48,455 bases of DNA from an uncultured Verrucomicrobiales bacterium (GCA_937910245.1 CALEOR010000139.1:1-48455), one strand, 5' to 3'. Counted from the stretch's first letter, positions 29,899 through 45,229 are shown. The notes: generated by a model not told the origin, from the sequence alone. Program-made: numbers and translations.

Positions 29899-29905
29899 GA
29901 TTTCC

Positions 29906-29933: not shown

Positions 29934-29944
29934 GCCCCCTTGTT

Positions 29945-32599
29945 ATGACCACTCCCGCCCAAGACCTCTTCGCCCAGGCCCACGACCTGGATCCCGACGC
30001 TCGTGAGGCCTTCCTTGCCAAAGCCTGTGGCGACGACGCCGAACTCCACCTCGAGGTCCAGCGCCTCCTCGTCGATGCCGAGAAGGCCCAATCCTTCTTT
30101 GCGGACACCGAAGGTGCCACCATCGGCGCCGAGGAATTCGACGAGACCTACACCGAGGCCGAGGGCGACGTCGTCGGCCCCTACACCCTGCGCCAACAAA
30201 TTGGCGAGGGCGGCTTCGGCACCGTCTGGATGGCCGAGCAAAGCGAACCCATCTCGCGCATGGTCGCCCTCAAGGTCATCAAGGCCGGGATGGACACCAA
30301 GCAGGTCCTCGCCCGCTTCGAGGCCGAGCGCCAGGCCGTCGCGATGATGGATCACCCCAATATCGCCAAAGTCCTCGACGCCGGTGCCACTTCCACCGGC
30401 CGACCCTACTTCGCGATGGAGCTCGTCAAGGGCATCCCCATCACCCAGTTCTGCGATCAGCAGAAGTTTGGCCCCAAACGCCGCCTCGAGCTCTTCCGCG
30501 ACGTCTGCGCCGCCGTCCAACACGCCCACCAGAAGGGCATCATCCACCGCGACCTCAAGCCCTCCAACATCATGGTCACCCTCGCCGCCGATGTCCCGGT
30601 GGTGAAGGTCATCGACTTCGGCATCGCCAAGGCCACCCAAAACAAGCTCACCGAAAAGACCCTCTTCACCCGCTTCGAGCAGTTCCTCGGCACCCCGGTC
30701 TACATGAGCCCCGAGCAGGCCGCGATGAGTGCGATCGACATCGACACCCGCTCGGACATCTACAGCCTCGGCGTCCTTCTTTACGAACTCCTCGCCGGTG
30801 CCCCGCCCTTCGATCAAAAGTCGCTCCTCTCCGCCGGTTACGACGAAATGCGCCGCATCATCGTGGAAGACGAACCGCCCAAGCCCAGTACCCGCTGCAC
30901 CGAGACCCAAGCCAATACCACGACCGGAACCGGATCAAAGCCCAGGAAATCTCATCTCAGCCCCAGCGCCCTGAAGGGCGAACTGGACTGGATCGTGATG
31001 AAGGCCATCGAGAAGGACCGCACCCGTCGCTACGAGACCGCCAACGCCTTCGCCTCCGACATCGGGCGCTACCTTTCCGACGAACCGGTGCAAGCCGCCG
31101 CGCCAAGTTCCACCTACAAGTTCAAGAAATTCGCCCGGCGCAACAAGGCCGCCTTTTCGGTGGCCGCCGCGATGCTCGTCTTGCTCCTCGCAGGCATCGC
31201 CACCACCAGCTGGCAGGCGGTGCGGGCCACGCAAGAGGCCGAACGGGCGACCCAGGCCGAGAAAAAAGCCACCGAAGAGAGCGAGGCCAAGACCGCAGCG
31301 CTCGAGGACGCCAAAGCGACCTCGAAGTTCCTGACCGACATGTTCAAGAGCTCCCGGCCCGGCGAGGAGAAGGGCGGGCGCAAGGTCAAGGTCGCAGAAG
31401 TCCTCGATCGGGCCGCGAAGCAACTGGATGACGACACCCAAATGCTCCCGAGAACGCGCGCAGTGCTGCAGGGGGCACTTGGAAAAACCTACAATGCCCT
31501 CGGGCTCTATCCACAGGCCATCCCGCTGCTGGAACAGGTATGGAAGTACTCCCTCGCAGCCCTCAGCCCGGAGCACCCCGACACGCTCGAGGCGATGGGC
31601 AACCTGGCGATTTCCTACCAGCGTGCCGGCCACCGGGTCGAGTCGATCAAAATTTTAGAGAAGGTGTTGCTGCTCCAGCGCAAAGTGCTCGACCCGGAGC
31701 ACCCCGACACGCTCAGATCGATGAACAGTCTGGCGCATTGCTACCACGCCGCCGGCCGCTGGGACGAGGCGCTCAAGATGCAAGAAGAGTTGCTGCCGCT
31801 GTGCCTGCAGGTGAGCGGCCCGAAGCACCCCGACACGCTCGTAGCAATGGCCTCCCTGGTGGAATCCTACTACTATGTAGACCGCCGGGACAAGATGCGC
31901 AAAGTGCTCGAGGAGCTGCTGCCGTTATCCAACGAGGTGTTCAAACCGGAGCACCCCTTCACGCTCCAGGCGAAGCGCGGCCTGGCGATTTTACACTCCG
32001 ATGCCGGCCGACTGGACGAGGCGATCAAGCTGGGCGAGGAGGTGCTGGCACTTTCCCTCAAGGCGGTTGGCCCGAAGCATTTCATCACGCTCCAGGTAAT
32101 GGGCTCCCTGGCGGATTTCTACTCCGATGATGGTCGCCGTGACGAGGCGATTAAGCTGGGCGAGGAAGTGCTGGCGCTTTCCCGCGAGGTGAATGGCCCC
32201 AAGCACCACAACACGCTCTCGATGATGAGCACTCTCTCAATCATTTACAACGATGCCGGGCGAAGCGCAGACGCGATCAAGCTCGGAAAATCGGGTCTCG
32301 ATTTGCATTTGAAAGTCATTGGGGAGAAGCACCCCGACACCCTCAATGCCATGACCAACCTCGCCATCTGTTATCAAGTGGCCGACCGCCTCAAGGAGGC
32401 CATTGCCCTGGAGGAAAAGGCGCTCGGGCTGAAACGTCGGATCCTTCGGTCCGGGCATCGGAAAACGATCGAATCGATGGACAACCTCGCCACCTACTAC
32501 GAGAAGGCGGACCGCAAGGAGGAAGCAAAGCCCCTCCGCGACGAGATCGCCAAGCTCAAAGCGGACGCCGCCAAAGCAACACCCCCGCCCACAGAATGA
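29945..32599 (+). CDS. Hanks-type Ser/Thr protein kinase, single TM, C-terminal TPR sensor
   Basis: An 884-aa ORF with kinase motifs GEGGFGTVW, VALK, HRDLKPSN, DFG and SPE. The TM helix is AAFSVAAAMLVLLLAGIATT. Eight clear 42-aa TPR_12-like units follow (EHPDTL...). Confidence 0.92.
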   Translation: MTTPAQDLFAQAHDLDPDAREAFLAKACGDDAELHLEVQRLLVDAEKAQSFFADTEGATIGAEEFDETYTEAEGDVVGPYTLRQQIGEGGFGTVWMAEQSEPISRMVALKVIKAGMDTKQVLARFEAERQAVAMMDHPNIAKVLDAGATSTGRPYFAMELVKGIPITQFCDQQKFGPKRRLELFRDVCAAVQHAHQKGIIHRDLKPSNIMVTLAADVPVVKVIDFGIAKATQNKLTEKTLFTRFEQFLGTPVYMSPEQAAMSAIDIDTRSDIYSLGVLLYELLAGAPPFDQKSLLSAGYDEMRRIIVEDEPPKPSTRCTETQANTTTGTGSKPRKSHLSPSALKGELDWIVMKAIEKDRTRRYETANAFASDIGRYLSDEPVQAAAPSSTYKFKKFARRNKAAFSVAAAMLVLLLAGIATTSWQAVRATQEAERATQAEKKATEESEAKTAALEDAKATSKFLTDMFKSSRPGEEKGGRKVKVAEVLDRAAKQLDDDTQMLPRTRAVLQGALGKTYNALGLYPQAIPLLEQVWKYSLAALSPEHPDTLEAMGNLAISYQRAGHRVESIKILEKVLLLQRKVLDPEHPDTLRSMNSLAHCYHAAGRWDEALKMQEELLPLCLQVSGPKHPDTLVAMASLVESYYYVDRRDKMRKVLEELLPLSNEVFKPEHPFTLQAKRGLAILHSDAGRLDEAIKLGEEVLALSLKAVGPKHFITLQVMGSLADFYSDDGRRDEAIKLGEEVLALSREVNGPKHHNTLSMMSTLSIIYNDAGRSADAIKLGKSGLDLHLKVIGEKHPDTLNAMTNLAICYQVADRLKEAIALEEKALGLKRRILRSGHRKTIESMDNLATYYEKADRKEEAKPLRDEIAKLKADAAKATPPPTE

Positions 32600-32748
32600 T
32601 CACCCTTGCCCTGAGCATCTTTGCCCGGGCTCAGGACCAGGCCACGACTGTAGCCGGCTTTGCCCATTGACACCCATCCCACCGTGATGATCGAATGGGA
32701 TGATCGGACGAGTGACAAGTTGAAGACCTCTTTCTGACCTCTCTCCTT

Positions 32749-32828
32749 AAAGAAGAACTTCTTTCGCAACAGTCTCCCCTAAAAAAGAAATCTTTACTTC
32801 ATCCCCCTCTAGAGAAAGAATTCTTTCT
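32749..32828. promoter_or_regulatory. Three AAAGAA/TTCTTT palindromes (operator-like array) upstream of fic
   Basis: The palindromes are AAAGAAGaaCTTCTTT (32749-32764), AAAGAaaTCTTT (32784-32795) and AGAAAGAATTCTTTCT (32813-32828). Their centres are 33 and 31 bp apart. The last ends 2 nt before the ATG at 32831. Confidence 0.5.
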
Positions 32829-32830
32829 TA

Positions 32831-34012
32831 ATGAATCAGCTCCGTGTCACAGGCAGCGCCGAAACCACGACTGTGGCAGGAGAAGGAGTGGCTGCATTCG
32901 TGCCGCTTCCCTTGCCGCCGGTGGCTCCCTCGCTGGAGCTCAACGAAGCGATGCGGGAACAGATCCGCGCCGCCGAGGAAGGCCTCCGTCGATTGGAACT
33001 GGCTGGGGAGATGGTGCCTTCGCTTGACTGGTTCATCTACGGCTTCGTGCGCAAGGAGGCCGTCCTCTCCTCCCAGATCGAGGGCACGCAGGCGACTCTG
33101 GTGGATCTCCTGAACTTCGAGGCCAGGGGGAGCCACGAAGCGCCGGAGAACGCCGACATCCGGGAAGTCTGCAACTCCCTGGAAGCACTCGACCATGCCC
33201 GCGACCAGCTCCGCCGCCCGGACGGGTTGCCCCTTTCGATGCGCCTCCTGAACGAAGCTCACGCCCGCCTGATGCAGGGAGCGAGAGGAGCCGACAAACT
33301 TCCCGGCGAGATCCGTCGAAGCCAGAACTGGATCGGTGGCACCCGCCCGGGCAATGCCACCTTCGTGCCGGCCCCGCCTCACCGACTCGACGGCCTCTTG
33401 TCGGATTTTGAAAAATACCTGCATGCGGACGACGACGAACTCCCCCCGCTGGTGAGGGCAGGGCTCCTGCACGTTCAGTTCGAGACCATCCACCCCTACC
33501 TCGATGGCAACGGCCGGATCGGGCGGCTTCTGGTCATGCTCTTACTCGAGGACTGGGGGCTTCTCGCGGCCCCGCTGCTCTACCTGAGCCTGTTCTTCAA
33601 GCGGCACCGCGGCGAATACTACCGGCGGCTCGCCGCTGTTAGGACGGATGGCGACTGGGAGGGCTGGACGTCCTTCTTCCTCGAAGCCGTCGCGACGATC
33701 GCCGGGGAGGCGGTCTCGACGGCCCGCGATCTCTTCGCCCTGGTCAGTCGCGACCGGGCGCGCGTCCTGACCACTCCCGGCAGTACCGTGATCGCCGCCC
33801 GCTTGTTCGAGATGCTGCCGCAGCATCCGGTCATCACGATCGGGTCGGCGGTGACGCTGCTGGAGACCACCCGGCCGACCGCCACCAAGGCAGTGACGGC
33901 CTTGGTCCATGCCGGTGTGCTGGCGGAGACCTCCGGCAAGAAGCGCGACCGCTCGTTCGGCTATGCGGCCTATCTTGATCTGCTGAAAGTGGGGACGGGG
34001 CTCGAGCGGTAA
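32831..34012 (+). CDS. Fic family protein (putative AMPylase) with N-terminal inhibitory motif and C-terminal winged-helix region
   Basis: A 393-aa ORF. The Fic active-site motif is HPYLDGNGRIGR. The N-terminal SSQIEG fits the [ST]xxxE[GN] auto-inhibition motif (class II arrangement). The C-terminal ~90 aa are wHTH-like. Confidence 0.9.
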   Translation: MNQLRVTGSAETTTVAGEGVAAFVPLPLPPVAPSLELNEAMREQIRAAEEGLRRLELAGEMVPSLDWFIYGFVRKEAVLSSQIEGTQATLVDLLNFEARGSHEAPENADIREVCNSLEALDHARDQLRRPDGLPLSMRLLNEAHARLMQGARGADKLPGEIRRSQNWIGGTRPGNATFVPAPPHRLDGLLSDFEKYLHADDDELPPLVRAGLLHVQFETIHPYLDGNGRIGRLLVMLLLEDWGLLAAPLLYLSLFFKRHRGEYYRRLAAVRTDGDWEGWTSFFLEAVATIAGEAVSTARDLFALVSRDRARVLTTPGSTVIAARLFEMLPQHPVITIGSAVTLLETTRPTATKAVTALVHAGVLAETSGKKRDRSFGYAAYLDLLKVGTGLER

Positions 34013-34155
34013 GTAATCGAAACAGGCTCCGCTCAAAAGACAGAGAGAAAGGCCCTCTGCAGAGCGGAAGGCTGGGAACTCCGTCCTCGTCCCACCCCAT
34101 CCCTGAGGGAAACTGACAGCACCGAGTCGTAGGAATTTGCTCCGGTGGGAAAAGG

Positions 34156-34192
34156 AAAAAGCCCCCTGCCGGCAAGGTGCCGTCAGGGGGCT
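34156..34192 (-). terminator. Rho-independent terminator (serves the minus-strand gene; sits between convergent genes)
   Basis: The stem is GCCCCCTG (34161-34168) pairing with CAGGGGGC (34184-34191). On the minus strand it is followed by TTTTTCCTTTTC. It lies 20 nt after the stop at 34212. Confidence 0.7.
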
Positions 34193-34211
34193 TGGGAAAT
34201 CCTCGGGAGGA

Positions 34212-35039
34212 CTACCTCCGGCGCCGTGCCAGGAGCCATCCAAACGCGGAGACCAGCAGGACGCTCGATGACGGTTCGGGAACCGGCGTAAATGACTGAC
34301 CGGCCGTAAGCCCATCAATGTCATTTTTGACAGCCGATAATCCAACCAAATCAAAGAATCCAATGTTCGTTCCAAAAGCGCCGGCTGCGGGCGACTCCGG
34401 GGCTGACCCGAGAAAGCCCATACCGGCCACTAACTCAGTTCCTAAGAGCATTGAATGGTCTAATGACGGCCCCCCACTCGTGGTGGGAAATACGAAGGCC
34501 TGAATCGTTGGATCCGTCGGATAGGGTGCGAATGGGAGACCCAAGTCAAAAGGATCCGACATGGTCTGCGGAGCACCGTCTATTGTGACGTAGAAAAATC
34601 CAAATCCTGAGACCTCCGACAGAACCGCTTGCCCGCCGGAATCAACGACTTCAATTCCGAAAAGGTGAAGGCAACCTGGTAGAATTGGGTCAGGCACAAG
34701 AGGCGTCCCCACAACAGTTTCGGAAGTAAACGAGAAAAACGTGGATCCGTCGGGCTGGTCCGTTCTCACGGCCGAATGCCTCCCACCACCAACGACCATG
34801 GGCGGACCGGTCGTCGGAAACTCCCCCTCAATCTCACCATCAAAAAAGTTCTCCGTGTGAAAAGTGATGCTGGCTCCGTTTGCATCGGACGGATGTGCGA
34901 AGCCCGACCAGGCTACGACACCAATCAAACTCAGTTGCGAGAGGGAGGAACAAGCGAGGAACTCGCGATTAAGGATTTTTTTCATGATACGAATTGGGGG
35001 TTGTTTTGGTTTCTTTTGCCGGGCGCTTTTGCCCGTCAT
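34212..35039 (-). CDS. PEP-CTERM domain secreted protein
   Basis: A 275-aa ORF with C-terminal VPEPSSSVLLVSAFGWLLARRRR. The start at 35039 lies 6 nt downstream of a promoter-like motif, suggesting a leaderless mRNA. The alternative start MKKILNREF at 34985 gives a more canonical signal peptide. Confidence 0.8.
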   Translation of the reverse strand: MTGKSARQKKPKQPPIRIMKKILNREFLACSSLSQLSLIGVVAWSGFAHPSDANGASITFHTENFFDGEIEGEFPTTGPPMVVGGGRHSAVRTDQPDGSTFFSFTSETVVGTPLVPDPILPGCLHLFGIEVVDSGGQAVLSEVSGFGFFYVTIDGAPQTMSDPFDLGLPFAPYPTDPTIQAFVFPTTSGGPSLDHSMLLGTELVAGMGFLGSAPESPAAGAFGTNIGFFDLVGLSAVKNDIDGLTAGQSFTPVPEPSSSVLLVSAFGWLLARRRR

Positions 35040-35045
35040 CCCCCC

Positions 35046-35073
35046 ATGCGTATTCCGGCTAAAAAAACGGACA
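35046..35073 (-). promoter_or_regulatory. Candidate ECF-type promoter TGTCCG-N16-ACGCAT (minus strand)
   Basis: The minus strand reads TGTCCG-TTTTTTTAGCCGGAAT-ACGCAT-GGGGGG-ATG. This is the only minus-strand copy, and it is correctly oriented for the minus-strand gene. Confidence 0.5.
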
Positions 35074-35447
35074 GTTAAGTTTCATTATTTTCGCAAAACA
35101 AAAATTACGCCTGCACACCGCGTCGAAACCCGGGGCGATATTGGGCGGAAAGATGAAGCCAAGAAAGCGCCCCGTGCTTGGGACATCTTCTCCATCAAGG
35201 TCGGGAAATCCCACAAAACATCGACTGAGAAGATATTATGAACTTCATGATCGATTATGAGGATCAATGCCCTCCGGCATAGTGTCCTGTCGTCAATCAA
35301 AACAGAAACCATGAATCCATTCACCAAACCCGCCCACTTCCTCACCATCTCCCTCACGGCCACCACCGCCCACGACAGTCTTGGTGCCTTCCTCCCTGTA
35401 GACGGTGACACCGCCAGCCCTCTGGCGCTTACTCTCCACACAATATA

Positions 35448-36707
35448 GTGATGAACAGCAATTTAACCAAGCGAGGCTTCCTCTCCCTGACCGTCGCACA
35501 ATTTTTTGGGGCGGCGAACGACAACCTTCTGAAGGTCGTACTCAGTTTTGCCGTGGGAACAGGCCTCTGGTATACCTTGCTAGGAGAGGGAGGAGTGGCT
35601 TACATCGGGCTTTGTTTTACGATGCCGTTCATTTTTCTTTCGGGTTACGCAGGACAATTGGCGGATCGAATCAGTAAACAAAAGATCTCCTACTGGGTGA
35701 AAGTCGCAGAGATCGGGATCACTTTGGTGGCGATGCTGGGATTCTGGCAGGGTAATTTATGGATCACCATGGGAGCGATGATTCTCCTGGCGATTCAAAG
35801 TGCTTTTTTTGGACCGGCCAAGTATGGCATGATTCCCGAGTTGGTGGACAAGGGAGATCTCAGCCGCGCCAATGGCGTGATCAATATGTCGACGAACATC
35901 GCCGTGATCGCGGGAACCGTGTTGGCGGGGCATGTGTCTGATGCCTATCAAGGGATCGACACGGATATGCCGCTTTCCTGGCTGCCGGGAGTGGCATTGG
36001 TAGGTGTCGCCATTCTGGGTTGGGTCGCGATTTCATTCATGCCTCGAATGGAGGCGATGGATCCTGATCTGAAGTTCGACTGGAATCCATTCGGGGTTTA
36101 CCTGACGGCCTTGAAAGAAATGAGCCGTAGTCCTTTGCTGACCGTGGCCTGTGCGTGGTCGACCTTCTACATGATCGGGATGCTGGCACTGACGATCTTG
36201 TTGGCGTATCCGAAACTGTTCGTGCTAAGTGACAGCGAAGGAGCTATGCTGCTCGGAGTGCTGGGAGTGTCAATTGGCATGGGGAGTGTGCTGGCGGGGC
36301 TGATTTCCGGACACACCATTAAACCGAAACTGATTCCGGTCGGGGCGATTGGAATGACGATCTTCTTCGCGGCCTTGGGACTGGCTCCCATGAATTACGG
36401 AATCGTGGCAACTTTCATTGCCGGTGTCGGCGTGTTTGCGGGTTTCTACATCGTTCCCTTGCAGGCACTTCTCCAGCATCTCTCACCCGATGACGAACGG
36501 GGCCGGTTTCTGGGAACCGCAAACGCGATGTCCTTTGTCGCGAGTTCGATAGGGCTCTTGATTTATATATTTACAGTCCGGGTGCTTGGGATGGAACCCA
36601 ATCGGGTGTTCTTAATTTGTGCAGGGTTGGCGTTTTTCGGGACGGGTGCCTTGATCTGGCGGATGCGTAAACTGATGGCGAAGGAAGCGAATAAAGAGGC
36701 TGCCTGA
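35448..36707 (+). CDS. MFS transporter (LplT-like lysophospholipid-transporter type)
   Basis: A 419-aa ORF with ~12 TM helices. The N-terminus FLSLTVAQFFGAANDNLLKVVL resembles the MFS module of LplT/Aas-type proteins. Confidence 0.8.
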   Translation: MMNSNLTKRGFLSLTVAQFFGAANDNLLKVVLSFAVGTGLWYTLLGEGGVAYIGLCFTMPFIFLSGYAGQLADRISKQKISYWVKVAEIGITLVAMLGFWQGNLWITMGAMILLAIQSAFFGPAKYGMIPELVDKGDLSRANGVINMSTNIAVIAGTVLAGHVSDAYQGIDTDMPLSWLPGVALVGVAILGWVAISFMPRMEAMDPDLKFDWNPFGVYLTALKEMSRSPLLTVACAWSTFYMIGMLALTILLAYPKLFVLSDSEGAMLLGVLGVSIGMGSVLAGLISGHTIKPKLIPVGAIGMTIFFAALGLAPMNYGIVATFIAGVGVFAGFYIVPLQALLQHLSPDDERGRFLGTANAMSFVASSIGLLIYIFTVRVLGMEPNRVFLICAGLAFFGTGALIWRMRKLMAKEANKEAA

Positions 36708-36747
36708 ACCCCTGAATGAACGAACGATGGCTGATGTGATCCGTTGG
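36473..36747 (+). repeat. Direct repeat copy 1: MFS 3' end plus the first 7 codons of an ECF sigma gene
   Basis: It aligns with 39679-40001 at ~88% identity, apart from a ~48-nt indel after the MFS stop. ATGGCTGATGTGATCCGTTGG (36727-36747) matches the start MADVTRW of the intact sigma gene at 39981. Homology then stops abruptly. Confidence 0.8.
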
Positions 36748-36802
36748 ATACTCTTGCCGGTTTGGTCTGATTCGAAACCCGCCGGCGTTCCGCTACAAAG
36801 AC

Positions 36803-36837
36803 AAAAAAGCGAGCGCTCAATGAAGAGCGACCGCTTT
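36803..36837 (-). terminator. Rho-independent terminator for the thioredoxin-like gene
   Basis: The minus strand reads AAGCGGTCGCTC-ttcatt-GAGCGCTCGCTT-TTTTTG: a 12-position stem (10 Watson-Crick pairs, one G-U pair and one T/C mismatch). It lies 31 nt after the stop at 36868. Confidence 0.75.
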
Positions 36838-36867
36838 GAAATTAGCCAATAACGAATTCCTAATTCC

Positions 36868-37593
36868 CTATTCGTCCTCAGTCTCTTCATCAGAGTCCGG
36901 GGATGCTTCCTTGATCAACTTCTGATCCGCTTCGGAAAGCTTGGCGATGGGATAGGGAATCTTTTTCCCATTCTTGAGCTTGAACATGACGTTCTCGCCC
37001 TCGATCGCGGTCACAGCCGCTACCAGGGGCTTGCCCTCGCTGTTGGTCCAGGTGCGCTGAGCGATGAGCGGCTTGGCAAAGAGACCACCGTCATCATCCT
37101 CATCCACAACTTCGACATCCTTGAGGGCCTTCTTGATCGCCTTGTCAAAATCAGGACTCATGGGATGCCCTTCAAAGACGAGCTCACCGCTCGCATCAAA
37201 CACAACGGAATGGGGAATGCCCTTCATATTGGGCGCACGAGTGGAGCCCTTCATGATGGGGTAATTGATCTTGTGCTCCTTCACGAGCTTTTCAATCGCC
37301 TCCACCGAACTGCTCTGAACCTCGGGAGCGAGAATGCGGAGTCCCTTTTTGCTATACTTTTTGTCCATCTTGACCAGATGGGGCATGGCGCCAATACAGG
37401 GGCCTCACTTGGTTCCCCAGTATTCGAAAACCACAACCTGACCCTTGAGGTCTTTCATGGTTACCTCTTCGCCCACTTGAACGGTGCCAATTTCCCAATC
37501 AGAGAGCTTGGCATCGGCAGCCTGGAGGGGCAGGCCCACCGAGGAAACAGCAAGAATTGCTCCGGCTGCAAAATGTTGTAATTTAATTCTCAT
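36868..37593 (-). CDS. TlpA/ResA-like thioredoxin-fold protein with SHD1-like C-terminal module; candidate selenoprotein (UGPC redox motif)
   Basis: Two adjacent same-frame ORFs (37405-37593 and 36868-37386) are separated only by TGA at 37405-37407. The joined product reads ...VVVFEYWGTK-U-GPCIGAMPHLVKMDKKY..., so the TGA replaces the first Cys of the canonical W-C-G-P-C. It has a signal peptide. The C-terminal WTNSEGKPLVAAV...FKLKNGKKIPYPIAKLSEADQ resembles SHD1. Confidence 0.7.
37365..37381 (-). promoter_or_regulatory. SECIS-like hairpin downstream of the in-frame UGA
   Basis: The mRNA reads CCAUCU-GGUCA-AGAUGG: a 6-bp stem and a 5-nt loop starting GGUC. The stem begins 23 nt after the UGA. 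Confidence 0.45.
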
Positions 37594-37798
37594 AGATTTT
37601 TAATCTCTTCCTATACGAAATTATCCACCTTAATTTATCTATTTTTTATCATTTATTTTTTCGTTCCATTCTAATGAAACCGGCGTCCCGATGATATCCG
37701 GAAGGGTAAAGCTGGGCATCCAGGGCGATCAAGGGAAATAAGAGAACGACAAGGTTTGTGGCGTCGGCTGTTGGCGATTAGCCCGGTCGACCGCACCG

Positions 37799-37893
37799 CG
37801 AGAAAGCTAAGTGCCAACCGCTAAAAGCGAATCGCCATGGTGCGTAGGGCCCTTCGCTCCGCCCCGATCCCTTGATCGCCCTGCCGGGCATCC
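37799..37893 (+). repeat. Copy B of the conserved ~100-nt intergenic element (candidate structured leader RNA)
   Basis: It aligns with 28251-28348. The hairpin here is AGCGAA...UUCGCU, against AGCCAA...UUGGCU in copy A, a compensatory C:G to G:C change. It lies ~90-185 nt upstream of the ATG at 37985. Confidence 0.5.
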
Positions 37894-37984
37894 TGCAAGT
37901 TCCTCCTCTGCAAACTCTCCAGAAAGAGGCACTCTTTCCAAAATCCTGCAAGCCGTCCTCTCAAAACTCATTCGATCATCCGCT

Positions 37985-39532
37985 ATGAAAAAACCCACCG
38001 TCTCCGATCTGTCACCCATCCCGGTAGAGCTCAAAAAAGATGAGACTTACTACTATTGCACCTGCGGAAAGTCTGCCAACCAACCCTTCTGCGACGGCTC
38101 GCACAAGGGCACCGATTTTGTCCCCCAATCATTCCAGGCGACAGAAGACGGCACCGCCTACCTCTGCCGATGCAAACAAACGGGAGGTTCCCCCTTCTGC
38201 GATGGCAGCCACAAACAAGTCCCTGACGAACAAAGAGGAAAAGAATTCGCCCTCGAGAAGTCGGGGGACGCCGACGCCATGCCCGAAGCCACCTCGACCC
38301 CGGAAGAGCCCACCGTCGCTTTCATCCACCAACTCGCCCGGGACGGCCTCTCGAAACTGGGCCACCACGGACCGATGGGCGCCATGGGCGTCCCAAGGAA
38401 AGATCTCCCCGACTGGAACGACATCCAAATCATGGTGGCGCAACTCCACCGCAAACCCCTCTTCGAAGATGTCGCGGTGGGCACCAAAGTCATCATCGGA
38501 CCCGAAGCCAAAAAGCCCCTCGAACTCGAAATCCCCCTCTTCGTCTCCGACATGTCCTTCGGCGCACTTTCCGAAGAAGCCAAAACCGCGATGGCCAAAG
38601 GAGCCGAATTGGCCGGCACCGGAATTTGCTCGGGCGAAGGCGGCATGCTCCCCGACGAACAAGAAGCCAACAGCCGCTACTTCTACGAACTCGCCTCCGC
38701 GAAATTCGGCTACCGGGAAGAGCTTCTCGCGCGCGTCCAGGCCTTCCATTTTAAATGCGGCCAGGGTGCCAAAACCGGCACCGGCGGCCACCTCCCCGGC
38801 AACAAAAATACCGGACGCATCTCGGAAGTACGGGGGATCCCCGAAGGACAACCGGCGGTCTCCCCACCCACCTTCTCTGACCTCAACACGGTAGAAGACT
38901 TCAAAAACTTCGGCGACCGCGTACGCGAAATCAGCGGAGGCATCCCGATCGGCTACAAGCTCAGCGCCCAGCACGTTGAAAAGGACATCGACTTCGCCCT
39001 CGCGGGTGGAGCCGACTACATCATCCTCGACGGTCGTGGCGGTGGCACCGGAGCCGCCCCCCTTTTATTCCGTGATCATATTTCCGTCCCCACCATTCCC
39101 GCCCTCGCCCGCGCCCGGCACCATCTCAACAAGGTGGGCGCCAGCGGACGAGTCAGCCTCATCATCACAGGGGGACTGCGCACTCACAACGACTTCGTCA
39201 AAGCCCTCGCCCTTGGTGCGGATGCCATTGCCCTTGCCAACTCGGCGATGCAAGCCATCGGCTGTGTCGGAGCCCGCATCTGCAACACCAACCTGTGTCC
39301 TGCCGGCATTGCGACCCAGAAACCGGAACTCCGCAAACGTCTCAAAGTGGACCACGCCGCCAAGCGTCTTCAAAACTACCTCGAGGCCACGACCGAGCTG
39401 ATGCAGGTCATGGCCCGCGCCTGCGGCCACAATCACCTCAACCAATTTAATAAGAACGACCTCGCCACCTGGAAAAAAGAAATGGCGGAAATTTCAGGCA
39501 TCGAATTCTCCGGACTGGATCTGGAACGATAA
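37985..39532 (+). CDS. Fusion protein: tandem CDGSH iron-sulfur domains plus glutamate synthase-type FMN domain (GltB domain 2-like)
   Basis: I chose the start at MKKPTVSDL; the longer ORF from 37811 runs through the non-coding repeat. There are two CDGSH motifs (CTCGKSANQPFCDGSH and CRCKQTGGSPFCDGSH). GltS-type FMN-domain blocks follow (GEGGMLPDE, KCGQGAKTGTGGHLPG, IILDGRGGGTGAAP). Confidence 0.85.
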   Translation: MKKPTVSDLSPIPVELKKDETYYYCTCGKSANQPFCDGSHKGTDFVPQSFQATEDGTAYLCRCKQTGGSPFCDGSHKQVPDEQRGKEFALEKSGDADAMPEATSTPEEPTVAFIHQLARDGLSKLGHHGPMGAMGVPRKDLPDWNDIQIMVAQLHRKPLFEDVAVGTKVIIGPEAKKPLELEIPLFVSDMSFGALSEEAKTAMAKGAELAGTGICSGEGGMLPDEQEANSRYFYELASAKFGYREELLARVQAFHFKCGQGAKTGTGGHLPGNKNTGRISEVRGIPEGQPAVSPPTFSDLNTVEDFKNFGDRVREISGGIPIGYKLSAQHVEKDIDFALAGGADYIILDGRGGGTGAAPLLFRDHISVPTIPALARARHHLNKVGASGRVSLIITGGLRTHNDFVKALALGADAIALANSAMQAIGCVGARICNTNLCPAGIATQKPELRKRLKVDHAAKRLQNYLEATTELMQVMARACGHNHLNQFNKNDLATWKKEMAEISGIEFSGLDLER

Positions 39533-39599
39533 AGAAGCGGCCCAAGCTGGAAAGGCAAAACGATCAGCGATGAAAATCTCCGCAAAACAGCAAGGTGGG

Positions 39600-39684
39600 C
39601 TATTTTAGCTGAACGGGTTTGGCGAAAGTGCGCATCGATCTCTCGACGGCGGGAAAGAAGTCCTTGTTCCCCCGCTGCCCAGCA
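39600..39684 (-). pseudogene. Internally deleted remnant of a paralog of the 45641-47077 gene
   Basis: Positions 39600-39622 match the last codons plus stop of 45641-47077 (...AKPVQLK* vs ...AKPVRLK*). Positions 39617-39685 match its internal segment 46427-46495 (KDFFPAVERSMRTFAK vs KDFLPAVEKSMRTFAK). The two pieces are joined at the shared hexamer TTTGGC. Confidence 0.7.
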
Positions 39685-39912
39685 TCTCTCACCCAATGAT
39701 GAACGGGGCCGGTTTCTGAAAACCGCAAACGCAATGTCCTTTGTCGCGAGTTCGATAGGGCTCTTGATTTATTTGTTTGCAGTCGAAGTGCTCGGGATGG
39801 AACCCAATCGTGTTTTCCTGATTTGTGCAGGGTTGGCGTTTTTCGGGACGGGAGCTTTGATCTGGCGGATGCGCAAGCTGATGGCGAAGGAAGCTGGCAA
39901 AGAGGCCGCCTG
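39679..39912 (+). pseudogene. 3' fragment (77 codons) of an MFS gene paralogous to 35448-36707; part of direct repeat copy 2 (39679-40001)
   Basis: It translates to QHLSPNDERGRFLKTANAMSFVASSIGLLIYLFAVEVLGMEPNRVFLICAGLAFFGTGALIWRMRKLMAKEAGKEAA*. The intact gene has QHLSPDDERGRFLGTANAMSF...KEANKEAA*. There is no upstream coding continuation. It is fused to the previous remnant at CCAGCA. Confidence 0.8.
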
Positions 39913-39980
39913 ACCCCCAAATAGAGGGCCCGCATTGCCGATTGACCCGCCCCCCGTTGCAGTGGTGAAATGAACGAACG

Positions 39981-40526
39981 ATGGCTGATGTGACCCGTTG
40001 GCTGAATGCCTCCACCTCCTCCCGCGATGAGGAGATGTTCGCCGGTTTGTATGCCGAGCTCCACAAGATCGCGCGCGGCCGCATGGCGGGAGAGCGACCG
40101 GAACAAACCCTTGATGCGACCGGCCTGGTCCATGAGGCTTGGTTGCGGCTCGAGAAATCCGCACCGGAGGAGTGGCAAAATCGCAAGCACTTCTTCGGGG
40201 CGGCGGCCGAGGCGATGCGGCGCATCCTGGTGGAAGCGGCCCGCCGGCGCATGGCGGCCAAGCGCGGAGAGGGAGAGGGAGCGGTGCCGCTCGACGAAGC
40301 CCTGCCCATCCCCTCGGCGATGCCCGACGAACGGCTTCTCGCCGTCCACGAAGTGCTTGATCAACTCGAGAAGGAACACGAAATGGATGCCCAAATTGTG
40401 AAGCTGAAGTTCTTCGGCGGCCTGAAGCAGGACGAAATCGCGGCCCTCCTGGAAGTGAGCGAAAAGACGGTGCAACGGCATTGGATCATGGCCAAGACCT
40501 GGCTTTATCAAGCCTTGCAAGAATAG
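39981..40526 (+). CDS. ECF sigma factor, TIGR02999-like (kinase-associated type)
   Basis: A 181-aa ORF, ~70% identical by eye to the 29350-29898 product. The same signature blocks are present (LVHEAWLRL, FFGAAAEAMRRILVEAAR, VKLKFFGGL...EKTVQRHW). Confidence 0.9.
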   Translation: MADVTRWLNASTSSRDEEMFAGLYAELHKIARGRMAGERPEQTLDATGLVHEAWLRLEKSAPEEWQNRKHFFGAAAEAMRRILVEAARRRMAAKRGEGEGAVPLDEALPIPSAMPDERLLAVHEVLDQLEKEHEMDAQIVKLKFFGGLKQDEIAALLEVSEKTVQRHWIMAKTWLYQALQE

Positions 40527-40581
40527 ATTGAAGGCCCCGCAGTCTGCTTTGCACCAAGCCAAAAAAAAACTTCAAATCCGA

Positions 40582-40609
40582 TGACCCTTTTTTCCGGGTC
40601 ACAACGCAT
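40582..40609 (+). promoter_or_regulatory. Candidate ECF-type promoter TGACCC-N16-ACGCAT
   Basis: A copy of the bipartite motif. The -10-like box ends 8 nt before the MFS ATG at 40618. It is embedded in an ~85-nt cassette duplicated at 42060-42145. Confidence 0.5.
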
Positions 40610-40617
40610 GTTATTCC

Positions 40618-41943
40618 ATGGAGCCACAATCAGCCACCTTCCCCTCACCCGAAGCCGCCGTCGACCCGATGGACATCGACAGTAGCGGAGACGGTGTAAC
40701 GCCTCGCAACTGGATCTCGCTCATCGCGGTGTTAATCGTGCAGGCGCAGAACGCGTTTAACGACAACTTCGTCAAGTTCGTCCTCCTGGGACTCGCGATC
40801 GCAGCCTTCAAAGGCGGATTCATCGGCGACAATATTGAACACATCCTCGGGGCGATGATTCCCATCCCCTTCATCTTGCTGGCACCGGTCGCCGGCTATC
40901 TCTCCGATCGCTATTCCAAGCGCACCATTATTGTTATTAGCCTGATCGGCCAACTGACCATCTTCGCGCTCATCGCCATCAGCCTGATGTCGCACTTCGT
41001 CTACGGCGCACTGCTCGGCTATTTTCTGCTCGCCGTGCAGTCGACCGTCTTCTCACCGGCCAAGCAGGGCATTCTCAAGGAACTGATCGGCTCCGAGCGC
41101 CTCGGCTTCGCCAATGGCCTGATGCAAATGCTGACGATGGTCGGCATTCTCGGTGGCATGTTCCTCGGTGGCATGTTTTTCACCTCGCTCAATGAGAGCG
41201 GAGGAGACGAGTGGCGCTCCGCCCTGATCCCCACCCTCGTTGCGGGCTTGGCCGCCATCGTCCCACTGGTGCTGGTGCGCTGGATTCAAGCGACCCCTGC
41301 CCACCCAAAGATGCATTTCACCAGAGAAGTATGGGGTCGCCATTTCGTGCATCTCAAGGAACTGTTCAGGAACCGTATTCTGCGGCTGACTTCGCTGGCA
41401 ATTTCGAGCTACTGGTTTCTCGCCAATTTCATCGGCCTCGCGGTGATCGGATTCGGCAAGGAACTCAAACCCGATGGCGCTCCGGGTGCCTCGGCCTTGA
41501 TGATGGCCTTGATCGGCATCGGCTTAATCATTGGCAGCATCGTCGTCTCAACTCTCAGCAGGCACCGCATCCGGCTCGACATCGTGCCACTGGGCGTCGC
41601 CGGAATCACCGCCGGTTTGGTCGCTCTTGGCACTCTGCCTGCCGGCAGCGTCGCGTGGAATTTCAGCCTCGGCTTCATCGGCTTTTCCTCGGGTTTCCTT
41701 CTGGTTCCGCTCAACGCATTTCTCCAGGACCGTGCCTCGGAAGCCACTCGCGGGCGCATTCTCTCCGCCAACAACTTGCTGGCGTCTTTTGTCGGACTCG
41801 TCTCGATCGCCATTGGGCTCTTCATGACCAGCGCCCTTGATTGGGAGGCCTCCACCCAGGTGCTGATCTATGCGGGTTTCGGGTCCATCATTCTCCTCGT
41901 CTTGACCTTGCACTCCATGCCCATCCTGCGCCGGGCCCAATGA
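40618..41943 (+). CDS. MFS transporter (LplT-like), located between sigma and kinase
   Basis: A 441-aa ORF with ~12 TM helices. The N-terminal IVQAQNAFNDNFVKFVLLGLAI parallels VAQFFGAANDNLLKVVLSFAV of the 35448 paralog. Confidence 0.8.
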   Translation: MEPQSATFPSPEAAVDPMDIDSSGDGVTPRNWISLIAVLIVQAQNAFNDNFVKFVLLGLAIAAFKGGFIGDNIEHILGAMIPIPFILLAPVAGYLSDRYSKRTIIVISLIGQLTIFALIAISLMSHFVYGALLGYFLLAVQSTVFSPAKQGILKELIGSERLGFANGLMQMLTMVGILGGMFLGGMFFTSLNESGGDEWRSALIPTLVAGLAAIVPLVLVRWIQATPAHPKMHFTREVWGRHFVHLKELFRNRILRLTSLAISSYWFLANFIGLAVIGFGKELKPDGAPGASALMMALIGIGLIIGSIVVSTLSRHRIRLDIVPLGVAGITAGLVALGTLPAGSVAWNFSLGFIGFSSGFLLVPLNAFLQDRASEATRGRILSANNLLASFVGLVSIAIGLFMTSALDWEASTQVLIYAGFGSIILLVLTLHSMPILRRAQ

Positions 41944-42109
41944 GATCTGCCAGACGCCAGGACACACCACCATTGACGATCTGTCGCTCTCCTCAAAGTC
42001 AACAAGAAGACAGCGCCGCAACATTCGCTGATGGCCAGAACTTGCAGAAGTCGATGTAAGGTCCAGCAGCCTGCTTTGCACCAAGTCATAAAAAATACTT
42101 CAAATCCGA

Positions 42110-42137
42110 TGTCTTTTTTTTCCGGGCCAAGACGCAT
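42110..42137 (+). promoter_or_regulatory. Candidate ECF-type promoter TGTCTT-N16-ACGCAT
   Basis: A copy of the bipartite motif. The -10-like box ends 8 nt before the kinase ATG at 42146. Confidence 0.5.
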
Positions 42138-42145
42138 GTGATACT

Positions 42146-44890
42146 ATGAAACCGCCATCTGCCCGAGATCTCTTCGCCCGCGCTCTTGATTTAAATCCGG
42201 ACGATCGAGATTCTTTTCTGGCCGCAGAGTGTGGGAAAAACGCCGAGCTCCGCCTTGAGGTCCAACGCCTTCTGGTCGATTCCGAGAAGGCTCAGTCCTT
42301 CTTTTCCGACGAAGACGGGGCCACCATCGGAATGGAAGAATTTGACGACACCTTCACCGAAGCAGAGGGCGACGTCGTCGGCCCCTACACCCTGCGCCAA
42401 CAGATCGGCGAGGGCGGCTTCGGCACTGTTTGGATGGCCGAGCAAAGCGTGCCCATCTCTCGCATGGTGGCGCTCAAGGTCATCAAGGCCGGGATGGACA
42501 CCAAGCAGGTCCTCGCCCGCTTCGAGGCCGAGCGCCAGGCCGTCGCGATGATGGATCACCCCAATATCGCCAAAGTCCTCGACGCCGGTGCCACTTCCAC
42601 CGGCCGACCCTACTTCGCGATGGAGCTCGTCAAGGGCATCCCCATCACCCAGTTCTGCGATCAGCAGAAGTTTGGCCCCAAACGCCGCCTCGAGCTCTTC
42701 CGCGACGTCTGCGCCGCCGTCCAACACGCCCACCAGAAGGGCATCATCCACCGCGACCTCAAGCCCTCCAACATCATGGTCACCCTCGCCGCCGATGTCC
42801 CGGTGGTGAAGGTCATCGACTTCGGCATCGCCAAGGCCACCCAAAACAAGCTCACCGAAAAGACCCTCTTCACCCGCTTCGAGCAGTTCCTCGGCACTCC
42901 GGTCTACATGAGCCCCGAGCAGGCTGCGATGAGCGCGATCGACATCGACACCCGCTCAGACATCTACAGCCTCGGCGTGTTACTTTACGAACTGCTGGCA
43001 GGTGCGCCGCCCTTCGATCAGAAGTCACTCCTCTCTGCCGGTTACGATGAGATGCGCCGCATCATCGCAGAGGACGAGCCTCCCAAACCCAGCACCCGCT
43101 GCACCGAGACCCGGATCCAGGCAAGCACCGCGACGGGCACCGGATCGAAGCCGAAGAAATTTCATATCAGCGCCAGCGCCCTAAAGGGCGAACTGGACTG
43201 GATCGTGATGAAGGCCATCGAGAAGGACCGCACCCGGCGCTACGAGACTGCCAACGCCTTCGTGGCCGACATCGAGCGCTACCTCGATGACGAGCCGGTG
43301 GAGGCCGCCGCGCCAAGTACCACCTATAAGTTGAAGAAGTTCGCGCGGCGAAATCGGACTGCAGTTGCTTTTGCCACCACGATCACCGTTCTCTTGATTG
43401 CGGGGATCTTCGGAACCACGTGGTTTGCGCTGTCCTCTCAGGAGGCCCGAATCGATGAGAAACAGGCCAAGGAATACGCACTTAAGAGCGGGGAAGAAAC
43501 CAAAAAGGCCCTCGAGCGAACTAAAGTCGCATTAAATCAATCCCGCTACGAAGAAGCCAAAACCTGGTTGGAAAGAGCGCGACTGGCAATAATGCAGAAG
43601 AACAAATTCGCGGCCGCCATGATGGCCGCGAAAGGCTTGGGATTTCGAGGATTTGGTGCGGAGCGGCAGACCGAGGAGTTCCGGAAAGCCAATCCGGTGC
43701 TCCTGGAGAAAGAGAAGCCGGAATTCGAGGAGCTCATGCAAATCGCGATGGACGGCAACGTTCCGTGCCGTCCAATTTGGCGATCTCCTCTTGGCTCGCA
43801 TAAAGAAAGGGTCTCCACAGTGACCTTCAGCCCGGATGGCGCCACCCTCGCCAGCGGAAGTTGGGATGAGACGATCAAGCTCTGGGACCTCTCGAGCGGA
43901 AAGGAGATCCGAACCTTCGGGCACCAAGACACGGTCATGAGTGTGGCCTTCAGCCCGGATGGCAGCACCCTCGCCAGCGGGAGTGGGGACGGGACGATCA
44001 AGCTCTGGGACCTCTCGAGCGGAAAGGAGATCCACACCTTCGGGCACCAAGACCTGGTCTTGAGTGTGGCCTTCAGCCCGGATGGCAGCACCCTCGCCAG
44101 CGGGAGTGCCGACAAGACGATCAAGCTCTGGGACCTCTCGAGCGGAAAGGAGATCCACACCTTCGGGCATCAAGACAGGGTCATGAGTGTGGCCTTCAGC
44201 CCGGATGGCAGCACCCTCGCCAGCCGGAGTGACGACAAGACGATCAGGCTCTGGGACCTCTCGAGCGGAAAGGGGATCCGCACCTTAAGGCACCAAGACT
44301 TGGTCAGTAGTGTGGCCTTCAGCCCGGATGGCACCACCCTCGTCAGCCGGAGTTACGACAAGACGATTAAGCTTTGGATTGTGGACAACTCACCGCCCGA
44401 TCTGGCAGGCTACCTCGATCCCCGAAATCCCTGGTACCGACTTGAGGGATCAGGGATTTCCTTGAATTCCCAAACCGGCGATCGACTTGTGGATAGGGAA
44501 CCGCAGTTCCTGAATGTTTCTCCCGTCAGCCATGTGGGCATCCTCCACAGCACCCGCTCGCCGGAAAAAAAGAACCGCGCTCTCTTTTGGAATTATCTGC
44601 ACGCCGGGAACTGGAACAGCGCCGGGGTTCTGTATGCGCGCTTGACCGACCCAGCCTCAAAAGAATCAGCCCGGGAGATGACCGTTCTGAGACGCGCGGC
44701 CAAGGCGCAATCCGCCTTCGACGGCGGACTCTACCGTCATGCCAGGTGGCACCTGGAAGAGATCACTCCGCTGTTGAAGCCCGATGAAACCGATCCAGCG
44801 ATGTTGAGAGCGAAGGAGCTGATCGAGCGATTGAAAGACGACTTGGATCAACGCGAGGCCTCCGACGGTCGGAAGGATTCGCCAAAGTAA
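42146..44890 (+). CDS. Hanks-type Ser/Thr protein kinase, single TM, C-terminal WD40 sensor
   Basis: A 914-aa ORF. The catalytic domain is identical in amino acids to that of the 29945 kinase over ~245 residues. The TM helix is VAFATTITVLLIAGIFGTTWF. A coiled region follows, then ~4.8 WD40 repeats (VAFSPDGSTLASGS.D.TIKLWDLSSGKEI.TFGHQD) and a ~165-aa tail. Confidence 0.92.
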   Translation: MKPPSARDLFARALDLNPDDRDSFLAAECGKNAELRLEVQRLLVDSEKAQSFFSDEDGATIGMEEFDDTFTEAEGDVVGPYTLRQQIGEGGFGTVWMAEQSVPISRMVALKVIKAGMDTKQVLARFEAERQAVAMMDHPNIAKVLDAGATSTGRPYFAMELVKGIPITQFCDQQKFGPKRRLELFRDVCAAVQHAHQKGIIHRDLKPSNIMVTLAADVPVVKVIDFGIAKATQNKLTEKTLFTRFEQFLGTPVYMSPEQAAMSAIDIDTRSDIYSLGVLLYELLAGAPPFDQKSLLSAGYDEMRRIIAEDEPPKPSTRCTETRIQASTATGTGSKPKKFHISASALKGELDWIVMKAIEKDRTRRYETANAFVADIERYLDDEPVEAAAPSTTYKLKKFARRNRTAVAFATTITVLLIAGIFGTTWFALSSQEARIDEKQAKEYALKSGEETKKALERTKVALNQSRYEEAKTWLERARLAIMQKNKFAAAMMAAKGLGFRGFGAERQTEEFRKANPVLLEKEKPEFEELMQIAMDGNVPCRPIWRSPLGSHKERVSTVTFSPDGATLASGSWDETIKLWDLSSGKEIRTFGHQDTVMSVAFSPDGSTLASGSGDGTIKLWDLSSGKEIHTFGHQDLVLSVAFSPDGSTLASGSADKTIKLWDLSSGKEIHTFGHQDRVMSVAFSPDGSTLASRSDDKTIRLWDLSSGKGIRTLRHQDLVSSVAFSPDGTTLVSRSYDKTIKLWIVDNSPPDLAGYLDPRNPWYRLEGSGISLNSQTGDRLVDREPQFLNVSPVSHVGILHSTRSPEKKNRALFWNYLHAGNWNSAGVLYARLTDPASKESAREMTVLRRAAKAQSAFDGGLYRHARWHLEEITPLLKPDETDPAMLRAKELIERLKDDLDQREASDGRKDSPK
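43799..44390 (+). repeat. Tandem 123-bp (41-codon) WD40-coding repeats, ~4.8 copies
   Basis: Repeat units start at 43799, 43922, 44045, 44168 and 44291. Units 2 and 3 differ at only ~7 of 123 nt, and the differences cluster in two codon patches. Confidence 0.9.
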
Positions 44891-45194
44891 AGCTCACCAT
44901 CGGTGGCCGGGTGGACATCATGAATGGCGTGAAGTTCATCTTCGACGGGAAGATCCTTGCCCACCAGGGCCGCTACCTCGTACCGCTGACCGACCTGGAT
45001 ATCATTATCGATGCGTCATACGCCCCCAATATATCCGGCATACCAGGGCTTTCGACACCGTCGTCATTGCCCCAGGTCACGGGAGGGACGGGCGTTGAGA
45101 AACAGAAGGCACAAATCAAATCGTCTGGCATTTTACAATTCACGGGTGTTGTAAATTGCGGCTGCCTGCGCGTGTTGCAGCGTTCTCTCTGAAA

Positions 45195-45223
45195 TTGACC
45201 TCATCAAGGTGATCAGGTAGCTT
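45195..45223 (+). promoter_or_regulatory. Sigma-70-like promoter TTGACC-N17-TAGCTT
   Basis: The -10-like box ends 6 nt before the antitoxin ATG at 45230. This is a pattern match only. Confidence 0.3.
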
Positions 45224-45229
45224 ACATCC

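Follow-up and report, generated by a model that had tools for sequence, protein, structure and literature searches.

Two diverged copies of an MFS/sigma gene junction flank ordinary genes in a deletion-prone sigma/kinase island of an uncultured Verrucomicrobiales bacterium

In an uncultured, Akkermansiaceae-like bacterium of the Verrucomicrobiales, the junction between a gene for an MFS transporter and a gene for an ECF sigma factor is present as two diverged copies, which flank 2.8 kb of ordinary genes. The DNA in question, here called the window, is a metagenome-derived stretch analysed over its whole length of 48,455 nt (GCA_937910245.1 CALEOR010000139.1:1-48455; positions are counted from its first letter). 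The locus bears a genuine scar, ordinary in kind, that was left by duplication, deletion and illegitimate joining. It is fixed, and lies in a regulatory island of ECF-sigma and Ser-Thr-kinase genes that is lineage-specific, prone to deletion and very plastic. The best explanation, in which we place moderate confidence, is that a second copy of the junction was gained, either by duplication or by taking up a sister-lineage allele, and that reciprocal loss with joints at microhomologies followed. The scar is a well-resolved case of known processes in a poorly studied phylum, and it reveals no new mobile element or mechanism.

The two copies are referred to as arm A and arm B (for coordinates of all features, see Table 1). 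Comparison of the window with itself aligned 36473-36712 with 39679-39918 at 89.2% identity, without gaps over 240 nt (E 1e-86), and 36713-36747 with 39966-40001 at 94% identity, 3′ of a stretch that is present in arm B only. An earlier note on this DNA, made from the sequence alone, had described direct repeats around a middle segment, and had taken them for homologous copies of one segment comprising the 3′ end of an MFS gene and the start of a sigma gene; the self-comparison bears out both statements (89% over the MFS part and 94% at the sigma start) and extends the arms slightly. Each arm is cut off on the side that faces the insert, and one intact copy of each flanking gene remains. The coding portion of arm A consists of the last 78 codons of the intact transporter gene MFS-A, and the arm closes at codon 8 of a sigma gene; arm B opens at MFS codon 342, carries 78 MFS codons without a stop or a frameshift, and runs on into sigma2, the intact gene. 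At the left junction (J1), sigma codon 8 is fused to the 3′ flank of the adjacent gene, Sec-Trx. J1 is placed at about 36751 because the sigma stub in a related strain, L003, reads 4 nt further (…CCGTTGGCTG|CTCTTGCC). Within arm B, an open reading frame (ORF) of 59 codons matches the two C-terminal transmembrane helices of the MFS protein.

The gene order is not a one-off mis-join, because it recurs in two further assemblies. One of these, L004 (ERZ23500153 scaffold_61, 57 kb), has other contig ends, is 100% identical to the window over 29981-42527 and spans all junctions; the other, L003 (ERZ21849173), comes from a different strain and sample, is 98.5% identical, and spans J1 only. The MFS-A protein is identical in both. 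J1 is thereby supported in a separate strain, and the right-hand junctions only in assemblies between which no base differs and which probably have reads in common, so that these junctions lack support from an independent sample.

The two arms differ in the length of the spacer between the MFS gene and the sigma gene. According to the earlier note, the second copy carried about 48 extra nt; this stretch is indeed found in arm B only and includes a TTGACC, but it reflects a deletion from arm A and not an addition to arm B. The first part of the stretch, CCCCCAAATAGAGGGCC, is also present in the MFS 3′ flank of L005, the locus of the nearest MFS orthologue, and the second part, …GCATTGCCGATTGACCCG…GCAGTGGTG, in the sigma upstream region of L094, the locus of the nearest sigma orthologue. 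Because each part is shared with a relative in this way, the 47-48 nt are ancestral, so that arm A has undergone the deletion and arm B has kept the ancestral joint between the MFS and sigma genes. A consensus scan for σ70 promoters made no call in the TTGACC stretch.

In the 78 codons (234 nt) that the arms share, there are 12 synonymous and six non-synonymous codon differences, and arm B contains neither an indel nor a stop. Non-synonymous divergence (dN) between the arms is 0.056 and synonymous divergence (dS) is 0.348, giving a ratio (dN/dS, or ω) of 0.16; the intact genes at the locus, compared with their orthologues, have ω values of 0.07-0.18. Had the truncated copy evolved neutrally since a duplication in place, about 63% of the differences would be expected to be non-synonymous, whereas the observed share is 10 of 25 (binomial P = 0.016). 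Thus, the test for neutral evolution of the truncated copy since duplication came out negative, albeit on a small sample. Since the differences are mostly synonymous and arm B is free of frameshifts and stops, both arms probably derive from once-intact MFS-sigma units and not from a fresh duplication of a target. Between the dead sigma-start stub and the live sigma gene, two of 36 positions differ. Taken together, these values suggest that most of the divergence between A and B arose while both copies sat in working genes, and that the truncations are comparatively recent. The dS of 0.35 between the arms is about half of that to the nearest relatives, L180 and L094 (0.54-0.71).

In arm B, two otherwise invariant residues have been altered (D→N and G→K within LSPDDERGRFLGTANA), and both fall in the 18 codons that have no start codon upstream. 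Compared with arm A, ω is 0.12 for the 59-codon ORF (39734-39913) and 0.50, with the two radical substitutions, for the 18 codons that precede it, the counts being too few for significance. In contrast, the 3′ remnant of a sigma gene beside a second transporter gene, MFS-B, is a true relic, which is about 65% identical to sigma2 and contains indels. The locus thus offers a dating contrast between a decayed remnant (about 65%) and a remnant that looks recently truncated (89%, ω 0.16).

Arm B is joined on its insert-facing side to pieces of a third gene, which encodes a protein with a DUF6288 domain. The earlier note had recognised here a remnant of a paralogue of the gene at 45641-47077, with an internal deletion at a shared TTTGGC and a fusion to the MFS fragment at a shared CCAGCA. 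The remnant is real and slightly longer than reported, spanning 39578-39684 rather than 39600-39684. Piece 1 comprises 22 nt of the native 3′ flank and the final 8 codons; piece 2 is an internal fragment of 61-65 nt with a 2-nt frameshifting indel, which matches 46427-46491 at 89.6-93%. The TTTGGC between the two pieces spans a deletion of 768 nt relative to the intact gene (45659 to 46432), and the CCAGCA at the joint with MFS codon 342 (J2) is a 6-nt stretch common to both parent sequences; the proposal of illegitimate joining at 6-nt microhomologies is thereby supported. Together with the joint of piece 1 to the 3′ flank of the preceding gene, CDGSH-GltS (J3), there are three joints inside 107 nt, and the patches between them measure 46 and 61-65 nt. 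The intact DUF6288 gene is only 6 kb away. It lies on the minus strand, downstream of sigma2 and the kinase gene K2, and the remnant pieces, also on the minus strand, lie directly upstream of the MFS fragment.

When the ambiguous microhomology bases were excluded, the DUF6288 pieces proved to be about equidistant (89-91%) from the gene in the window and from its orthologues in L180 and L181, and an attempted phylogenetic placement of the pieces was dropped for this reason. The pieces also keep ancestral states that the resident gene no longer has. Because of this equidistance and the retained ancestral states, the split of the pieces from the resident gene is old as well. The window contains a third DUF6288-domain paralogue, which is longer (751 aa), at 14090-16345.

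Two genes lie between the arms: Sec-Trx, an AhpC/TSA-Redoxin-like gene with an in-frame UGA (a putative selenoprotein gene), and CDGSH-GltS, which combines CDGSH iron-sulfur domains with a glutamate-synthase FMN domain. The earlier note had regarded them as possible acquired cargo, and this view found no support. The proportion of G and C at third codon positions is 0.64 in Sec-Trx, as in MFS-A (0.64), and 0.71 in GltS, compared with 0.73-0.77 in sigma2, MFS-B, K2 and DUF6288; no compositional break was detected at the boundaries of the insert when the middle was compared with the flanks. Homologues of GltS occur in many phyla with neighbours that are not conserved, the closest being from Verrucomicrobiales (80-85% identity), and, among 80 related loci, none places GltS close to a gene for Trx, DUF6288, MFS or sigma. 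The two middle genes do not have one shared history, because their divergence between strains differs: relative to L003, Sec-Trx differs by 0.4%, whereas GltS and its intergenic region differ by about 2.6%. No integrase, transposase or replication gene was found by Pfam in or near the block, nor were a mobilisation gene, attC or terminal inverted repeats pairing the ends of the insert found in the block; the duplication is 275-323 nt in length, i.e., not short. The insert thus holds only the AhpC/TSA-like and CDGSH-GltS genes, without functions of a circular element and without signs of foreignness, its intergenic DNA yielded no further gene remnants, and the window has no Rfam matches. On present evidence, the selenoprotein and CDGSH-GltS genes are not to be annotated as horizontally acquired.

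The UGA of Sec-Trx is kept in L003, and the gene call is split there in both L003 and L004. The predicted protein has a U-G-P-C redox motif, an AhpC/TSA-Redoxin fold and an SHD1-like C-terminal region. A hairpin resembling a selenocysteine insertion sequence (6 bp, GGUCA loop, 23 nt past the UGA) was no different from those in shuffled sequence. In the comparison with L003, a block of low divergence (0.2-0.4%) runs from a PEP-CTERM gene through MFS-A and J1 to Sec-Trx (window 34212-37593), and the Fic and GltS genes flanking it differ by 2.5-3%; this suggests recent homologous exchange between strains.

The scar lies in an island in which other rearrangements have left similar traces. In L094, L095 and about 55 of 80 loci, a kinase gene follows within about 60-190 nt 3′ of the gene for a PF07638-type ECF sigma factor; in the window, MFS-B intervenes. 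This resembles the pairing of ECF sigma factors with Hanks-type kinases (e.g. ECF43), an arrangement reviewed in PMC7826278, in that sigma1 and sigma2 of the window are PF07638 ECF sigmas and a kinase follows in most relatives. It differs in that the pair is here split by MFS-B and preceded by the MFS fragment, and in no relative examined does an MFS gene lie beside the sigma gene. MFS-B begins with the start codon and first six codons of the kinase. For this gene an empty site is known: in L094 (sigma 91% identical in amino acids) the sigma gene runs directly into the kinase gene, and a 124-nt segment of sigma end, intergenic region and kinase start (L094 919-1042) matches both 40514-40635 and 42041-42163. 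Neither L094 nor L095 has MFS-B, nor do about 55 other sigma-kinase pairs. The surroundings of MFS-B thus form a second scar, older than the first but alike in topology; in both, the duplicated unit consists of the 3′ end of an upstream gene, the intergenic control region and the first 6-8 codons of a downstream gene, present on both sides of an insert. A conserved sigma-kinase intergenic motif, AAAAAAAACTTCAAATCC.ATG.CC.TTTTTTCCGGG.CA..ACGCATG, is found at window 40562-40617 and 42090-42145, at about 965-1024 of L094 and at about 10765-10823 of L095; it may serve as a promoter or operator that belongs to the cassette itself.

Another sigma stub, the third, is about 16 codons long and is found in the closest genome, L180 (Akkermansiaceae metagenome-assembled genome JBLIDI010000007; DUF6288 87.5% identical in nucleotides). 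L180 is collinear with the window on both sides and lacks 29386-45551, a variable block of 16.2 kb which holds both sigma/kinase cassettes and the scar. At L180 9526-9690, a sigma1-like start, in which ATG has changed to AGG, is fused to about 150 unmatched nt and the native DUF6288 flank. Because L180 keeps this decayed stub, it has lost DNA, and the window has not simply gained it. L182 and L183 have lost even more, and deletions that leave sigma-start stubs thus recur at the locus. An 18-kb inversion relative to L179, considered for a time, was dropped, L180 being collinear with the window.

The kinase domains of K1, which has a TPR C-terminus, and K2, which has a WD40 C-terminus (29945-31143 and 42146-43353), have dS values of 0.85, 0.06, 0.21 and 0.55 in successive stretches of 100 codons, which indicates gene conversion between the paralogues, with shuffled sensor domains. 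That all pairs of about 89.5% identity in the window stem from one event was rejected, K1/K2 (89.6%) being such a gene-conversion mosaic with dS from 0.06 to 0.85 and thus of no use as a clock.

The arrangement can be explained by a series of gains and losses as follows. Two once-intact, diverged units, each of the form MFS-sigma(-…-DUF6288), would have stood in tandem, the second copy having come from an older segmental duplication or from an allele of a sister lineage. The redundancy would then have been settled by reciprocal loss: copy A would have kept its MFS gene and lost the sigma gene past codon 8, together with 47-48 nt of sigma upstream sequence. Of copy B, the sigma gene and the sequence natively upstream of it would have stayed, and MFS codons 1-341 would have gone. 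Of the second DUF6288 copy, only the two short pieces would have been left. These losses would have occurred by RecA-independent illegitimate joining at the 6-nt microhomologies TTTGGC and CCAGCA. The order and orientation of the relics, with the DUF6288 pieces upstream of the MFS fragment, are those expected for two tandem MFS-sigma-…-DUF6288 units. Reciprocal loss fits this relic order, the selection signature, the deletion-prone nature of the locus and the absence of foreign signal. The anatomy, the direction of the 48-nt indel, the signature of selection and the plasticity of the locus are shown by the data; the former intactness of both units, the order of events and the route by which the Sec-Trx/GltS block reached its place between them are inferred. 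The earlier note had offered duplication followed by decay as a second possibility, and this fits better than a Campbell event with foreign DNA, except that the fragment does not look neutral since duplication (ω 0.16).

A known counterpart of such a history is RecA-independent tandem duplication and deletion (PMC11111574), which the locus resembles in its 6-nt microhomology joints and in a relic order and orientation that match a duplicated MFS-sigma-…-DUF6288 unit. At such join points, a promoter and start codon can come to lie before a promoterless gene, as documented experimentally in bacteria (PMC11111574), and the same is seen at MFS-B, where a promoter and start codon are fused to a gene without its own. 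The differences are that the MFS fragment does not look neutrally decayed since duplication, and that nothing in the right-hand unit corresponds to Sec-Trx and GltS. On this reading, the locus would be a clear natural example of the reshuffling of multi-copy ECF-sigma/kinase cassettes in Verrucomicrobia by duplication or allele capture, reciprocal loss and microhomology joints, along with gene conversion between kinase paralogues, and with an inserted transporter gene taking over a promoter and start codon.

Several points weigh against this explanation. It needs a number of separate events (duplication or acquisition, J1, J3, the internal deletion and J2), and, with no counterpart of Sec-Trx/GltS in the right-hand unit, it still requires that DNA was inserted or replaced between codon 8 of the sigma gene and the flank of the DUF6288 pieces. 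The test for selection rests on 78 codons only, and the low ω could mean that the 59-codon ORF of arm B is still expressed and under selection. A relative-rate test with outgroups did not set the two branches apart, with eight changes on A and 12 on B. The MFS-B scar, of identical topology and with a true empty site in L094, is more simply explained by duplicative insertion. Finally, neither a genome with both units intact nor one with a single uninterrupted MFS-A/sigma unit was found in the data searched. No empty MFS-A/sigma site was met in the public data searched: a scan of reference genomes from MFS-A gave only distant relatives (34-50% identity), the closest relatives of the MFS-A protein (P0002-P0005, 64-83%) have unrelated neighbours, a genome scan with the sigma protein alone gave nothing, and an alignment scan gave relatives of ≤66% identity with canonical sigma-kinase pairs only. 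In JGI metagenome data, the DNA pattern had no matches and a protein scan gave two uninformative loci. As regards synteny, no relative has MFS-A adjoining a sigma gene, and L180 lacks the whole 16-kb block.

The earlier note had proposed a Campbell-type integration, i.e., a single crossover, as the first of its two possibilities. As weighed here, this alternative posits a crossover, or homology-facilitated capture, in the MFS-3′/sigma-5′ segment with DNA from a sister lineage diverged by about 11%, whose copy of this segment would already have been attached to Sec-Trx, GltS and the DUF6288 pieces, so that one chimeric arm of chromosomal and incoming DNA would lie on each side. The topology is exactly that of a single-crossover product, as in the integration of a suicide plasmid: direct repeats of one segment, with the 3′ side of the left arm and the 5′ side of the right arm missing, so that both truncations face the insert and each flanking gene survives intact once. 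The low ω would be explained, as the arms would already have diverged at entry; their dS of 0.35 is smaller than that to L180 and L094, as expected for a close sister donor; and the mosaicism between strains shows that homologous exchange occurs at the locus. We nevertheless consider such an integration unlikely. The insert has no replicon, integrase or mobilisation gene and no other plasmid or phage functions, it is compositionally indistinct and heterogeneous between strains rather than foreign, and the circle itself would need three or four illegitimate joints (J1, J3, TTTGGC and CCAGCA), including patches from a third gene. The donor would also have to share the lineage-specific adjacency of MFS and sigma genes, the arms are 11% diverged, and no empty site was found in the public data searched. 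What stands of the earlier proposal is the geometry of repeats, truncated arms and intact copies; mobility genes and a foreign signal are missing. Homology-facilitated illegitimate recombination during natural transformation (for the concept, see PMC6382021) is similar in using one homologous anchor and microhomology joints, and a divergence of about 10% is within the range where it still works. It differs in that it normally replaces recipient DNA and leaves no direct repeats of the anchor.

An equally unlikely alternative is a one-step duplicative insertion by template switching in a single MFS-sigma unit, akin to fork stalling and template switching or microhomology-mediated break-induced replication (FoSTeS/MMBIR; this class of mechanism is described in PMC2583991). 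Synthesis would have left the sigma gene at codon 8, copied Sec-Trx-GltS from elsewhere and then two DUF6288 stretches, and re-entered the MFS gene; because the point of re-entry lies 275-323 nt behind the point of exit, the arm would be duplicated. The likeness lies in the closely spaced breakpoints (three joints in 107 nt), in two tiny patches in the same orientation from a gene only 6 kb away, in two switches at 6-nt microhomologies and in the duplication of the interval around the insertion, and the MFS-B scar has the same topology with an empty site in L094. However, this alternative predicts a neutral MFS fragment and stub, against which the ω of 0.16 (P = 0.016) and the two differences in 36 nt speak; the selection signature thus argues against a single recent event. 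The patches, moreover, match the resident DUF6288 gene at 89-92% and retain ancestral states no longer present in it; neither they nor the arms are identical to their presumed templates. No second copy of Sec-Trx/GltS is known, and FoSTeS/MMBIR has been described mainly in eukaryotes.

Less probable again, and best regarded as speculation, is that both scars reflect one recurrent process of cassette capture at sigma/kinase junctions without a recombinase, or that arm B has been retained for a 59-aa microprotein. In the former case, homologous recombination could insert gene segments, once circularised, at conserved sigma/kinase junctions, such that every flanking gene keeps a promoter and start codon. 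In the latter, the 59-codon ORF with its ω of 0.12 might be transcribed together with the sigma gene and encode a small membrane protein of two helices.

That the assembly merged two relatives present together, with about 89% identity between them, into a chimera is very improbable despite the metagenomic source, the right-hand junctions seen only in identical assemblies and a 46-nt exact inverted repeat at the window ends (nt 1-46 are the reverse complement of 48408-48453, probably a contig-end assembly artefact), since J1 is present in another sample and strain (L003), two assemblies with different ends agree base for base at all junctions, and a k-mer mis-join, which switches within an identical stretch, would not make truncated arms and patches from a third gene.

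Table 1. Features of the scar and of the surrounding island (window positions; a full stop in the strand column means no strand assigned)
Feature	Position	Strand	Remark
Variable block, 16.2 kb, with both sigma/kinase cassettes and the scar	29386..45551	.	absent from L180
MFS-A, intact MFS_1 transporter gene	35448..36707	+	Pfam MFS_1 E 1e-29
Repeat arm A: MFS 3′ end, spacer shortened by 47-48 nt deletion, sigma-start stub	36473..36751	+
Sigma-start stub of arm A, 8 codons	36727-36751	+	part of arm A
J1: sigma codon 8 fused to Sec-Trx 3′ flank	36751..36752	.	sigma2 homology stops there; in L003 too
Terminator-like hairpin with T run, downstream of Sec-Trx stop codon	36814..36829	-
Sec-Trx, AhpC/TSA-Redoxin-like gene, in-frame UGA 37405-37407 in WGTK-U-GPC	36868..37593	-	putative selenoprotein
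98-nt repeated element, second copy 28251-28348	37799..37893	+	right hairpin arm with 37716-37740
CDGSH-GltS, CDGSH iron-sulfur domains and glutamate-synthase FMN domain	37985..39532	+	Glu_synthase 2.5e-95, zf-CDGSH 4.9e-19
J3: DUF6288 piece 1 joined to GltS 3′ flank	39577/39578	.
DUF6288 piece 1: native 3′ flank and final codons	39578..39623	-	matches about 45620-45664
TTTGGC microhomology spanning the internal deletion	39618..39623	.
DUF6288 piece 2: internal fragment	39624..39684	-
J2: CCAGCA microhomology, DUF6288 piece 2 to MFS codon 342	39679..39684	.
Repeat arm B: MFS 3′ fragment, ancestral spacer, start of intact sigma2	39679..40005	+
ORF in arm B, 59 codons	39734..39913	+	gene call in L004
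MFS-flank/sigma-upstream segment with TTGACC, ancestral, missing in arm A	39919..39965	+	partly common to L005, L094
sigma2, intact ECF sigma factor gene (PF07638)	39981..40526	+	Pfam
Second scar, left arm: sigma2 3′ end, conserved intergenic region, 6 kinase-derived codons now starting MFS-B	40431..40635	+
MFS-B, between sigma2 and its kinase	40618..41943	+	Pfam
Second scar, right arm: decayed sigma 3′ remnant (about 65%, indels), intergenic region, K2 start	41975..42163	+	0/300 shuffles reach score
K2, Ser/Thr kinase with WD40 repeats	42146..44890	+
Intact DUF6288 gene (D), relative of both remnant pieces	45641..47077	-

Further differences from relatives occur around the DUF6288 gene. An antitoxin-like ORF with a weak match (PF09720, E 5e-4) lies beside it and is followed by a short ORF (window 45230-45600), and the 89 nt at 45552-45640 are common to the window and L180. 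The gene orf47138 (315 aa, no Pfam match; window 47122-48263) marks a further indel, the corresponding stretch in L180 being about 300 nt long. In L179 (5241-7523), a DUF445 gene directly follows DUF6288 in a relative orientation opposite to that in the window and L180, which is another local rearrangement. Within the insert, a 98-nt element occurs upstream of GltS, and its other copy, 85.7% identical, occurs upstream of the FHA-cyclase/sigma1 cassette; the element has no Rfam match and is absent from all loci of relatives that were fetched. The copy on the GltS side forms the right arm of a long hairpin (37716-37740 / 37866-37893), with a fold z of -3.05.

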